Source: Escherichia coli (GTDB lineage Bacteria > Pseudomonadota > Gammaproteobacteria > Enterobacterales > Enterobacteriaceae). From it: DNA of 64,000 bases. Position 1 is the stretch's first letter; every line of letters begins with the position of its first letter. The DNA lies in NCBI RefSeq assembly GCF_048403405.1, contig NZ_CP183129.1; one strand, 5' to 3'. The translations under genes were made by a program, and so were the position numbers. Positions 16,797 to 25,577 of the stretch are shown here, one piece after another. The notes under the pieces are model-generated. The model was given only the letters and a program-made list of their open reading frames with translations, searched no databases and was not told the DNA's origin.

Positions 16797-18146
16797 TTAG
16801 ATAGCCCAGCCACCCGCATAGAAGGTCACCAGCGCCACAGCGATAACGACCGTACCGATGTTCAACTTGCGCCATTCGCCGGAAACCAGACGACCAATCA
16901 CCAGAGTCGCGAAGCCGATCATGATGCCTGTTACGATGTTACAGGTCAGCACGATGAATACCGCCGTAACCAGACCCGCCATCGCATCAACAAAATCAGC
17001 AAAGTCGATTTTCGCCACGTTACTCAGCATCAGCAGGCCAACGTACATCAGCGCCGGAGCCGTTGCATACCCCGGAACGAGGTAAGAGAGCGGAGAGAGG
17101 AACAGAATCAGCAGGAACAGCACGCCAACGGTGATAGCCGTCAACCCGGTTTTACCGCCCGCCGCCGTACCCGCCGCAGACTCGATGTATACCGCTGCCG
17201 GAGCTGCACCCACCAGGCCAGAGAAAACGCTGCTCATGGAGTCAGTGGTCAGTGCTTTACCGCCGTCGATGATCTGCCCATCTTTATCCAGCAGGTTCGC
17301 CTGACCGGCGACGGCGCGGATAGTTCCGGTGGCATCAAATACTGCCGTCATCACCAGCGCCAGAACGCTTGGCAGGACTACAGGATTCAGCGCGCCCATA
17401 ATGTCCAGGCTGCCAATCAGTGAATTGCCGTTTTCATCGCTCAATGAAGGCATGGCGAAAACGCCGGAGAAATGGACGTTAGGATCGAAGATCAAACCGA
17501 CAATTGAGATACCGATAATGGTCAGCAGAATGCCACCAGGGACTTTCAGTTTTTCCAGGCCGATGATCACCGCCAGACCTACCAGTGACATAATCACCGG
17601 GAAGGTCGCGAAATCACCCAGCGCAACGGGCAGACCATCAAGCGGGTTTTTAATCACCAGACCGACACCATTAGCGGCAATGAGCAGCAGGAACAGACCG
17701 ATACCGATCCCCGTGCCGTGCGCCACACCGTGCGGCAAGTTGCGCAAAATCCAGCTACGGATACCCGTGGCAGAAATTACCGTAAACAGTACACCCATCA
17801 GGAACACGGCACCCAGCGCGACAGGTACGCTAATATGTTGCCCCAGCACCAGACTGAATGCGGTAAACGCCGTCAGGGAGATGGCGCAACCAATCGCCAA
17901 CGGCAGATTAGCCCACAGACCCATCACGATAGAACCGAGTCCGGCAACCAGACAGGTCGCAACGAAAACTGCCGCAGGCGGGAAGCCTGCTTTACCCAAC
18001 ATGCCTGGAACGACGATAACCGAGTAGACCATCGCCAGAAATGTTGTTAACCCGGCAACCACTTCCTGACGGACAGTGCTTCCACGTTGTGAAATTTTAA
18101 ACCAGGCGTCGAGTGAACCGCCGGTACGCGCTGATGGCGTAGACAT
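16797..18146 (-). CDS. ghxP: guanine/hypoxanthine permease GhxP (YjcD), NCS2 family
   Basis: 449-aa polytopic membrane ORF; PurR-box-like sites upstream. Confidence 0.9.
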
Positions 18147-18260
18147 AAGAAAACATCCCCTGAGAGTTTAATTTTCGTCAAGATGCGTGGCGGACAATCC
18201 CCTGCCAGCGAAACGTTATCTTCCTGCTCCAGGTTTGCGACAAATTGGTGCGTCGCAAAA

Positions 18261-18276
18261 AAGCAAACGTTTAGCT
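18261..18276. promoter_or_regulatory. candidate PurR operator upstream of ghxP
   Basis: AAGCAAACGTTTAGCT contains the GCAAACGTTT core of the PurR box, about 120 bp upstream of ghxP start. Confidence 0.45.
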
Positions 18277-18402
18277 CCGCGCATACAAAACGGGTGGTAA
18301 AAAAAGCAAACGATTATCCGGCGATCATAGCGGCTTTTTCAACCGAAGTTTGCTGCTTTTTTCTCTTTTATTGTCTTGACGATGAAAAACCAGGCAATTG
18401 AT

Positions 18403-18418
18403 GCGCAAACGTTATCGT
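18403..18418. promoter_or_regulatory. second, weaker PurR-box-like site
   Basis: GCGCAAACGTTATCGT, partial match to the PurR consensus. Confidence 0.3.
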
Positions 18419-18559
18419 CGATGCGCAAGATTGCAGCGTTATCGAGCCGCATACCGTTCAGGATTGCGATAAAAAATCGTCTGAGATGACAAAAATATTG
18501 CGGCTAAAAAGTGTACTTTTACACTGGCGAAGAAACGCCGGTGACATACAATTAAAGCA

Positions 18560-18703
18560 TCAACACCAACCGGAACCTCCACCACGTGCTCGAATGAGGT
18601 GTGTTGACGTCGGGGGAAACCCTCCTGTGTACCAGCGGGATAGAGAGAAAGACAAAGACCGGAAAACAAACTAAAGCGCCCTTGTGGCGCTTTAGTTTTG
18701 TTC
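18560..18703 (+). ncRNA. sraL: candidate small RNA SraL (RyjA) in the ghxP-soxR intergenic region
   Basis: ORF-free stretch ending in a GC-rich hairpin (18668..18698) followed by a U-rich tract on the + strand, overlapping the soxR stop codon; position matches my recollection of SraL; 5' end is a guess. Confidence 0.4.
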
Positions 18704-19156
18704 ATCTTCCAGCAAGCGTGCGCCGGTACCTTCTTCTCCTAAGCGGTCGCCCGGGTTACGCAATGGGCAATCACTGCGCGAAAGGCAGCCACAACCAATA
18801 CATCCGTCCAGCTCGTCACGCAGCGCCACTAAGGTATGAATGCGCCGATCCAACTCTTCTCGCCATTGGGACGAAAGCTGTTTCCACTCTTTCGCACTTA
18901 ATGTATGCCCTTCGGGCAACACGCCAAATGCTTCACGAATGGTCGCCAGCGGAATGCCAATACGCTGAGCAATTTTGATGATTGCGACATATCGCAACAC
19001 ATCACGTTTATATCGCCGCTGATTGCCACTATTACGGATACTGCTAATCAACCCTTTGCTTTCATAGAAATGCAGCGCCGATACCGCCACACCGCTGCGT
19101 TTTGCCACTTCGCCGGGGGTTAGCAGCGCTTTAATGCGGGGTAATTTCTTTTCCAT
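18692..19156 (-). CDS. soxR: redox-sensing MerR-family regulator SoxR
   Basis: 154 aa, MerR HTH N-terminus and C-terminal [12 protein letters not shown] [2Fe-2S] cluster motif. Confidence 0.95.
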
Positions 19157-19167
19157 AAATCGCTTTA

Positions 19168-19185
19168 CCTCAAGTTAACTTGAGG
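19168..19185. promoter_or_regulatory. SoxR operator in the soxS promoter
   Basis: Perfect 18-bp palindrome CCTCAAGTTAACTTGAGG between a TTTACC -35-like hexamer (19164..19169) and TATACT -10 (19189..19194), 19-bp spacer. Confidence 0.85.
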
Positions 19186-19241
19186 AATTATACTCCCCAA
19201 CAGATGAATTAACGAACTGAACACTGAAAAGAGGCAGATTT

Positions 19242-19565
19242 ATGTCCCATCAGAAAATTATTCAGGATCTTATCGCATGGATTGACGAGCATATTGACCA
19301 GCCGCTTAACATTGATGTCGTCGCAAAAAAATCAGGCTATTCAAAGTGGTACTTACAGCGGATGTTCCGCACGGTGACGCATCAGACACTTGGTGATTAC
19401 ATTCGCCAACGCCGCCTGTTACTGGCCGCCGTTGAGTTGCGCACCACCGAGCGTCCGATTTTTGATATCGCAATGGACCTGGGTTATGTCTCGCAGCAGA
19501 CCTTCTCCCGCGTTTTCCGTCGGCAGTTTGATCGCACTCCCAGCGATTATCGCCACCGCCTGTAG
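19242..19565 (+). CDS. soxS: AraC-family superoxide response regulator SoxS
   Basis: 107 aa, MSHQKIIQDLIAWIDEHIDQPLNIDVVAKKSGYSKWYLQRMF; divergent from soxR. Confidence 0.95.
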   Translation: MSHQKIIQDLIAWIDEHIDQPLNIDVVAKKSGYSKWYLQRMFRTVTHQTLGDYIRQRRLLLAAVELRTTERPIFDIAMDLGYVSQQTFSRVFRRQFDRTPSDYRHRL

Positions 19566-22754: not shown

Positions 22755-25577
22755 ATGGATAAGATCGAAGTTCGGGGCGCCCGCACCCATAATCTCAAAA
22801 ACATCAACCTCGTTATCCCCCGCGACAAGCTCATTGTCGTGACCGGGCTTTCGGGTTCTGGCAAATCCTCGCTCGCTTTCGACACCTTATATGCCGAAGG
22901 GCAGCGCCGTTACGTTGAATCCCTTTCCGCCTACGCGCGGCAGTTTCTGTCACTGATGGAAAAGCCGGACGTCGACCATATTGAGGGGCTTTCTCCTGCC
23001 ATCTCAATTGAGCAGAAATCGACGTCTCATAACCCGCGTTCTACGGTGGGGACAATCACCGAAATCCACGACTATTTGCGTTTGTTGTTCGCCCGCGTTG
23101 GCGAGCCGCGCTGTCCGGACCACGACGTCCCGCTGGCGGCGCAAACCGTCAGCCAGATGGTGGATAACGTGCTGTCGCAGCCGGAAGGCAAGCGTCTGAT
23201 GCTACTCGCGCCAATCATTAAAGAGCGCAAAGGCGAACACACCAAAACGCTGGAAAATCTGGCAAGCCAGGGTTACATCCGTGCTCGTATTGATGGCGAA
23301 GTCTGCGATCTTTCCGATCCGCCGAAACTGGAACTGCAAAAGAAACATACCATTGAAGTGGTGGTTGATCGCTTCAAGGTGCGTGATGATCTTTCCCAAC
23401 GTCTTGCCGAGTCGTTTGAAACTGCGCTGGAGCTTTCCGGTGGTACCGCGGTAGTTGCGGATATGGACGACCCGAAAGCGGAAGAGCTGCTGTTCTCCGC
23501 TAATTTCGCCTGCCCAATTTGCGGCTACAGTATGCGCGAGCTGGAGCCGCGACTGTTTTCGTTTAACAACCCGGCAGGGGCCTGCCCGACCTGTGACGGC
23601 CTTGGCGTGCAGCAATATTTCGATCCTGACCGCGTGATCCAGAATCCGGAACTGTCGCTGGCTGGCGGTGCGATCCGAGGCTGGGATCGCCGCAACTTCT
23701 ATTACTTCCAGATGCTGAAATCGCTGGCAGATCACTATAAGTTCGACGTCGAAGCGCCGTGGGGCAGCCTGAGCGCGAACGTGCATAAAGTGGTGTTGTA
23801 CGGTTCTGGCAAAGAAAACATTGAATTCAAATACATGAACGATCGTGGCGATACCTCCATTCGTCGTCATCCGTTCGAAGGCGTGCTGCACAATATGGAG
23901 CGCCGTTATAAAGAGACGGAATCCAGTGCGGTACGCGAAGAATTAGCCAAGTTTATCAGCAATCGCCCGTGCGCCAGCTGCGAAGGGACGCGTCTGCGTC
24001 GGGAAGCGCGCCATGTGTATGTCGAGAATACGCCGCTGCCTGCTATCTCCGACATGAGCATCGGTCATGCGATGGAATTCTTCAACAATCTCAAACTCGC
24101 AGGTCAGCGAGCTAAGATTGCGGAAAAAATTCTTAAAGAGATTGGCGATCGCCTGAAATTCCTCGTTAACGTAGGCCTGAATTACCTGACACTTTCCCGC
24201 TCGGCAGAGACACTTTCTGGCGGTGAAGCCCAGCGTATCCGTCTGGCGAGCCAGATTGGTGCGGGCCTGGTTGGCGTTATGTACGTGCTGGACGAGCCGT
24301 CTATCGGCCTGCACCAGCGCGATAACGAGCGCCTGTTGGGTACGCTTATCCATCTGCGCGATCTCGGTAATACCGTGATTGTGGTGGAGCACGACGAAGA
24401 CGCGATTCGCGCCGCTGACCATGTGATCGACATTGGCCCGGGCGCAGGTGTACACGGCGGTGAAGTGGTCGCAGAAGGTCCACTGGAAGCGATTATGGCA
24501 GTGCCTGAGTCGTTGACCGGGCAGTACATGAGCGGTAAACGCAAGATTGAAGTGCCGAAGAAACGCGTTCCGGCGAATCCGGAAAAAGTGCTGAAGCTGA
24601 CAGGCGCACACGGTAATAACCTGAAAGACGTGACGCTGACGCTGCCAGTCGGTCTGTTTACCTGCATCACAGGGGTTTCAGGTTCCGGTAAATCGACACT
24701 GATTAACGACACACTGTTCCCGATTGCCCAACGCCAGTTGAATGGGGCGACCATCGCCGAACCGGCACCGTATCGCGATATTCAGGGGCTGGAGCATTTC
24801 GATAAAGTGATCGATATCGACCAAAGCCCAATTGGTCGTACTCCGCGTTCTAACCCGGCGACCTATACCGGCGTGTTTACGCCTGTGCGCGAACTGTTTG
24901 CGGGCGTACCGGAATCCCGTGCGCGCGGTTATACGCCAGGACGTTTCAGCTTTAACGTCCGTGGCGGACGCTGCGAAGCCTGTCAGGGCGACGGCGTGAT
25001 CAAAGTGGAGATGCACTTCCTGCCGGATATCTACGTGCCGTGCGACCAGTGCAAAGGTAAACGCTATAACCGTGAAACGCTGGAGATTAAGTACAAAGGC
25101 AAAACCATCCACGAAGTGCTGGATATGACCATCGAAGAGGCGCGTGAGTTCTTTGATGCGGTGCCAGCTCTGGCGCGTAAGCTGCAAACGTTGATGGACG
25201 TTGGCCTGACGTACATTCGCCTCGGGCAGTCCGCAACCACCCTTTCTGGTGGTGAAGCCCAGCGCGTGAAGCTGGCGCGTGAGCTGTCAAAACGCGGCAC
25301 CGGGCAGACACTGTATATTCTTGATGAGCCGACCACCGGTCTGCACTTCGCCGATATTCAGCAACTGCTCGACGTACTGCATAAACTGCGCGATCAGGGC
25401 AATACCATTGTGGTGATTGAACACAATCTCGACGTGATCAAAACCGCTGACTGGATTGTCGACCTGGGACCGGAAGGCGGCAGTGGTGGCGGCGAGATCC
25501 TCGTCTCCGGTACGCCAGAAACCGTCGCGGAGTGCGAAGCTTCGCATACGGCACGCTTCCTCAAGCCGATGCTGTAA
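22755..25577 (+). CDS. uvrA: excinuclease ABC subunit UvrA
   Basis: 940 aa, two ABC ATPase modules ([20 protein letters not shown]) and zinc-finger Cys clusters. Confidence 0.97.

Follow-up and report, generated by a model that had tools for sequence, protein, structure and literature searches.

The gene ghxP (formerly yjcD) encodes the 449-aa guanine/hypoxanthine permease of Escherichia coli, and the DNA upstream of it raises the question of which operators allow the purine repressor PurR to control its transcription and how they are placed relative to its promoter. The window analysed here is a 64-kb stretch of the E. coli chromosome, whose positions 17900-18900 are 100% identical to several sequenced strains. 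The region is present in 5420 of 5426 complete E. coli genomes and the window is collinear with K-12, with 20 substitutions in 1201 bp, no indels and the boxes described below untouched. The regulated gene ghxP lies on the minus strand at 16797-18146, as read from its ORF and from the annotation of identical E. coli genomes and K-12, which also places soxR at 18692-19156 (minus strand) and soxS at 19242-19565 (plus strand), and the sRNA gene sraL (ryjA) was located by Rfam at 18559-18699 on the plus strand with 153 bits. The sraL RNA is Hfq-binding, its gene has a likely TACAAT -10 at ~18547-18552, and its 3' hairpin (18668-18698), located just past the 3' end of the convergent soxR and overlapping the last soxR codons, looks like a two-way terminator shared with soxR.

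We consider it likely that ghxP has a single sigma-70 promoter that is repressed by PurR through three conserved operators, called here boxes D, C and B. The presence, matrix scores, conservation and spacing of these boxes are results of the present analysis, the evidence for in vivo PurR occupancy of the region and for purine-dependent expression is published, and the start site and the roles of the individual boxes we infer.

PurR boxes and the predicted promoter of ghxP

The original prediction concerned the 294 bp that precede the ghxP start codon on the minus strand, and suggested that a strong and a weak PurR operator stand there in tandem. Both 16-mers lie where they had been placed, i.e., AAGCAAACGTTTAGCT at 18261-18276 and GCGCAAACGTTATCGT at 18403-18418. 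On the gene strand (minus), the former, the downstream PurR box or box B, reads AGCTAAACGTTTGCTT and begins 130 bp before the ATG, and the latter, the distal PurR box or box D, reads ACGATAACGTTTGCGC and begins 272 bp before it. A PUR box was taken to be an imperfect palindrome of 16 bp, centred on a CpG, whose half-sites resemble ACGCAAAC; box D has three and box B four mismatches to a perfect palindrome.

The sites were scored with two independent matrices, one derived from Table 1 of the ChIP-chip study (PMC3159470), where 27 PurR sites remained once the yjcD site was excluded, and the other being the RegPrecise PurR matrix, taken from the supplement of PMC4576408. Both matrices place the two sites first and second in the 64-kb window. 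Box B scores 19.2 bits with the ChIP-derived and 15.7 bits with the RegPrecise matrix, box D 18.5 and 17.3 bits, respectively, and the top unrelated match in the window reaches 12.4 and 11.1 bits. Sites scoring at least the lower of the two values occur 0.04 (ChIP-derived matrix) and 0.21 (RegPrecise matrix) times per shuffled window in 2000 shuffles, and in none of 2000 window shuffles were two sites this strong found inside 200 bp. The tandem pair is thus real, but its division into a strong and a weak member was not borne out, as the order of the scores flips between the matrices (a difference of 0.7 bits with the ChIP-derived matrix and of 1.7 bits the opposite way with RegPrecise); the actual layout consists of three conserved boxes. 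Boxes B and D are both moderate, in the lower-middle range of validated operators; they fall inside the training range of the ChIP-derived matrix (12.1-25.3 bits) and inside the range of known E. coli operators on the RegPrecise scale, which extends from 11.9 (purA) to 25.0 (purT) and on which they rank beside pyrC, gcvT, speA and guaB.

The bare 9-mer GCAAACGTT is by itself weak evidence, with three copies in the window against 0.93 expected, an enrichment that is not significant (10 of 100 shuffles reach three copies). Its third copy at 25184-25192 was rejected as an operator, since the corresponding 16-mer CTGCAAACGTTGATGG scores only 3-4 bits and is a chance match.

Box C, the core PurR box, lies between boxes B and D at 18304-18319 and was missing from the original prediction. 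It reads GGATAATCGTTTGCTT on the gene strand (minus) and AAGCAAACGATTATCC on the plus strand and begins 173 bp before the ATG, and it shares with boxes D and B the CG at its centre and, on the gene strand, the half CGTTTGC. With the RegPrecise matrix it scores 14.8 bits, which is window rank 3, close to glnB and higher than carA and purA; with ChIP-derived matrices it reaches 10.3-11.4 bits, its overall rank being 3-8, and its 10.3-10.6 bits stand against 12.1 for the weakest training site of the ChIP-derived matrix. A repeat search recovered it as well, as a 17-nt direct repeat of the box at 18261, and none of 2000 shuffles contained a triple of this kind inside 200 bp when scored with the RegPrecise matrix.

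A further look-alike, box A, is located at 18207-18222 on the minus strand, reads AAGATAACGTTTCGCT on the gene strand, begins 76 bp before the ATG, and had been predicted as a 'novel' -76 site (PMC4576408). We rejected it as a fourth operator and regard it as probably not functional, since it scores 2.7-8.5 bits (window rank 12-99 across matrices) and is not conserved in the aligned ghxP upstream regions of relatives.

Transcription of ghxP would start from one conserved promoter on the minus strand, with the predicted -35 hexamer TTGAAA at 18342-18337, an 18-bp spacer, and the -10 hexamer GATAAT at 18318-18313, inside the left half of box C. The predicted start lies near 18306 (18306-18307, 6-7 nt past the -10 hexamer, corresponding by alignment to K-12 positions 4278318-4278319). 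A scan of both strands of 18100-18760 gave the TTGAAA-18 bp-GATAAT combination, which fits 10 of 12 positions, as its sole sigma-70-like match. Relative to the predicted start, the boxes are centred at about -104 (D), -5 (C), +38 (B) and +92 (A), so that box C, containing the predicted -10 hexamer, overlaps the core promoter and box B falls downstream of the start, in the predicted 5' leader. The idea of a further promoter close to box B or D was rejected, as the scan gave none and the alignments showed no conserved -35/-10 pair. A riboswitch or structured leader was likewise dismissed: Rfam finds only sraL in 17900-19300, and the fold of the predicted 164-nt leader is no better than that of shuffles (z = -0.42).

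Conservation and spacing of the boxes in relatives

A scan with one genome per species yielded 80 loci with GhxP 90-100% identical, nearly all labelled Enterobacteriaceae, and 77 of the 80 carry the full set of boxes D, C and B. Mean pairwise identity is 98% for box D, 95% for box C and 94.5% for box B. In the 78 sequences carrying boxes D and C, the -35 hexamer TTGAAA is 100% conserved and the CGTTTGC half of box C is invariant. Both promoter hexamers are invariant while the 18-bp promoter spacer between them is 53% identical, and the 60-bp stretch from box D to the -35 hexamer is 60% identical. The conservation of box C is owed in part to the -10 hexamer.

The distance from box D to box C is exactly 99 bp in all 77 unique sequences, and the other distances are variable, 42-205 bp from C to B and 114-190 bp from B to the ATG. 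The C-to-B stretch (18277-18303 in the window) measures 42-46 bp in Escherichia, Salmonella, Citrobacter and Enterobacter and 88-205 bp in Klebsiella, Raoultella, Kluyvera, Pseudocitrobacter and others, the longer stretches being therefore insertions inside the predicted 5' leader. Next to box D stands a conserved TTGCGCA heptamer (18422-18428, minus strand), 20 bp upstream of the identical heptamer that forms the outer half of box D (18402-18408, minus strand), and both copies are found in 72 of 77 unique sequences.

No lineage examined has fewer than two of the boxes, and which box is lost varies by lineage. Box C is absent only in Mangrovibacter, where the -35 and -10 hexamers and boxes D and B are kept and the CGTTTGC half of box C is lost; the promoter being intact there, this half is dispensable for the promoter itself. 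In Pluralibacter gergoviae box D is degraded and boxes C and B are kept, and both TTGCGCA copies persist, 22 bp apart, despite the degradation. Three Erwinia genomes (85-86% protein identity) keep the promoter, box C and a stronger box B (up to 21.8 bits) and have no box D. The divergent reduced genome ESL0689 keeps the -35 hexamer and boxes D and C 99 bp apart, with box B absent.

Two contigs in the set carry unexpected labels, one of a Bacillota metagenome-assembled genome (L002) that is 100% identical to E. coli over ghxP and its control region, and one of Chryseobacterium (L077) with an enterobacterial ghxP (93%) and all three boxes. Both appear to result from mis-binning or contamination of public assemblies.

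The position of box D between two divergent transcripts poses the question of which gene it serves. In E. coli it lies 141 bp from the 5' end of sraL, and in most genera sraL is 815-937 bp away with a glutathione S-transferase (GST)-like gene in between. This gene of 220-230 aa, co-directional with ghxP and located between soxR/sraL and ghxP, occurs in most Enterobacteriaceae and in Erwinia (1487-2155 in locus L007, 1420-2112 in L054, 142-804 in L083 and 268-930 in L084). It is missing in E. coli, E. albertii, E. whittamii and some Citrobacter, where sraL is 141-184 bp from box D. A role of box D as a regulator of the divergent sraL was rejected, as the distance to sraL varies and the D-to-C distance is constant at 99 bp; since this constancy holds with and without the intervening GST-like gene, box D is part of the ghxP control region.

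Published PurR data and comparable operators

PurR ChIP-chip in K-12 found binding in the region 4275855-4276485 (old coordinates), which corresponds to 18163-18793 of the window and is labelled ryjA/yjcD (PMC3159470). The peak has a log2 value of 2.08 (maximal/saturating) with adenine and is not seen without it, and it spans all boxes and does not resolve them; the motif named for it is ACGATAACGTTTGCGC, i.e., box D, the reverse complement of the plus-strand 16-mer at 18403 (PMC3159470). Box B is the -130 site AGCTAAACGTTTGCTT, which is among the sites concordant with RegPrecise (PMC4576408). The gene ghxP belongs to the PurR-1 iModulon, whose supplement gives the box D site at 4278206, and is reported as repressed by adenine (PMC6892915, PMC8376909, PMC3809563). 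Kozmin and Schaaper refer to a repression of yjcD by adenine that depends on PurR and mention a 4-fold decrease in the presence of a purine analogue, and Rodionova et al. describe ghxP as PurR-repressed. In the text of Cho et al., PurR sites are described as lying mostly between -35 and -10, and yjcD is not named there among new genes changing more than 2-fold on purR deletion plus adenine.

The ChIP-chip peak, the RegPrecise-concordant site and the PurR-1 iModulon all agree with the claim that PurR operators control this purine permease gene, which is also supported by the matrix scores and by the conservation of the boxes in ~85 genomes. PurR control of ghxP, box D and box B were already known. 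What is new here is modest and comprises box C, which none of the PurR/ghxP sources examined lists (the ChIP-chip study, the iModulon study and PMC4576408 among them), the layout of boxes upstream of, overlapping and downstream of the promoter, the constant D-to-C distance of 99 bp, and the finding that each lineage examined keeps two boxes or more.

Three positional modes of PurR action have been described (PMC6245113), and the ghxP boxes can be compared with each. Operators of the purF, purT, purMN and purHD type, for which hypoxanthine or guanine is the corepressor, resemble the ghxP arrangement in being 16-bp imperfect palindromes with a central CG that overlap the core promoter, the overlap of box C consisting in the shared -10 hexamer. 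They differ in their much higher matrix scores (20-25 bits for purT, purF, purL and purH with the RegPrecise matrix, compared with 14.8 bits for box C) and in that box C is flanked by two further boxes. Box B is like the downstream (roadblock) operators of purB and purR in lying past the predicted start, at ~+38, the purR site being at -60 from the ATG and the purB site at +184 (PMC4576408); whereas these genes have downstream sites only, ghxP adds promoter-overlapping and upstream sites. A roadblock function of box B we infer from its position alone.

For box D, the comparison is with the PUR box of carAB P1, which is centred at -128.5, where PurR bends the operator by ~97 degrees and the DNA in between must have the right architecture for repression (PMC6245113). 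The two share only the upstream position beyond occlusion and a spacing constraint. Repression of carP1 needs PepA wrapping and IHF, and ghxP has proximal boxes, which carP1 lacks.

Among other purine and PurR-regulated genes, xanP and tsx are PurR-bound transporter genes (PMC3159470 for ChIP-chip). For the adenine permease gene adeP/purP (yieG), PurR boxes are predicted at -147 and at -115, and serA and speA have two each (PMC4576408), in contrast to the three conserved boxes of ghxP that straddle its promoter. We know of no description of a fixed distance of this 99-bp type for other multi-box PurR genes.

Proposed mode of repression and its alternatives

In the mechanism that we favour, PurR with its corepressor hypoxanthine or guanine would repress ghxP from all three boxes. 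Binding to box C would exclude RNA polymerase, the usual PurR mode, because this box shares the -10 hexamer and covers the start point. PurR at box B may hinder elongation or the escape of polymerase from the promoter, as at the downstream operators of purR and purB. Box D, beyond occlusion range, could act as a phase-dependent helper through PurR-induced bending or cooperation with box C. Its fixed distance across a diverged spacer suggests a geometry-dependent contribution, for which the carP1 box is the only described precedent. PurR is a dimer with no known tetramerisation, hence cooperation between boxes D and C has no established basis, and the 99 bp make 9.4 turns of 10.5 bp each, a value that does not put the two boxes obviously in phase. 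As GhxP imports hypoxanthine and guanine, the corepressors of PurR, the imported bases activate PurR and the circuit is a negative feedback on purine-base uptake.

The invariant 99 bp over a 60%-identical spacer, together with the TTGCGCA repeat beside box D, could also be read as signs of a phase-dependent higher-order complex repressing ghxP, formed either by cooperative PurR dimers that link -104 to -5 or by PurR together with an architectural partner, as at carP1. We regard such a complex as rather unlikely; cooperation at a distance, if true, would be out of the ordinary for PurR, generally seen as a simple dimer. We give similarly little credence to the idea that only some of the boxes work, i.e., that boxes C and B repress and box D is neutral or separately used, for example to stop transcripts reading through from the GST-like gene upstream, or that only box D is occupied. 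This idea accords with Erwinia, which keeps boxes C and B and has no box D, with the end of the co-directional GST-like gene ~75 bp upstream of box D in most genera, with the published studies having each named one site only, and with the PurR box of carP1 at -128.5 being unable to repress alone (PMC6245113). It is opposed by the 94-98% conservation of all three boxes and by the presence of an unchanged box D in E. coli, which has lost the GST-like gene, and the invariant D-to-C distance over so diverged a spacer is unexpected for a neutral site or a simple roadblock.

That the boxes are conserved for another protein, be it a LacI-family regulator with a similar half-site such as RbsR or some other factor, and PurR is secondary appears very improbable. 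RbsR is a PurR paralogue reported to touch purine genes, and box A begins on the plus strand with CAGCGAAACGTT, which resembles the left half of the operator through which RbsR controls rbs; box A, however, is not conserved, and no RbsR-ghxP link was found in the literature search. The conserved TTGCGCA repeat beside and in box D has no assigned factor, and ghxP was upregulated in four constitutively active cusS mutants, a response unexplained in that study (PMC10920338), both of which would leave room for a further regulator. Against this, PurR occupancy in ChIP-chip is direct and adenine-dependent, the PurR-1 iModulon groups ghxP with the pur genes, with which it co-varies, and on the RegPrecise matrix the three boxes fit PurR as well as the guaB, glnB, pyrC and gcvT operators do. 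Chance similarities without function in an A+T-rich intergenic region could account for a single 17-bit site, given that the best site per shuffled window averages 14.0 bits with a 95th percentile of 18.7 (RegPrecise matrix), and would be in line with the lack of significant enrichment of the 9-mer; this reading is effectively refuted by the conservation of the boxes between diverged flanks and by the independent ChIP evidence, and no shuffle placed two such sites inside 200 bp.

The more complete map of the boxes is useful for annotation and for the design of reporter mutants and leaves the picture of the PurR regulon unchanged. PurR control of ghxP ties purine salvage to de novo synthesis. 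Since GhxP is also the entry route for toxic purine analogues (PMC3809563), repression of ghxP by purines affects the sensitivity to them.
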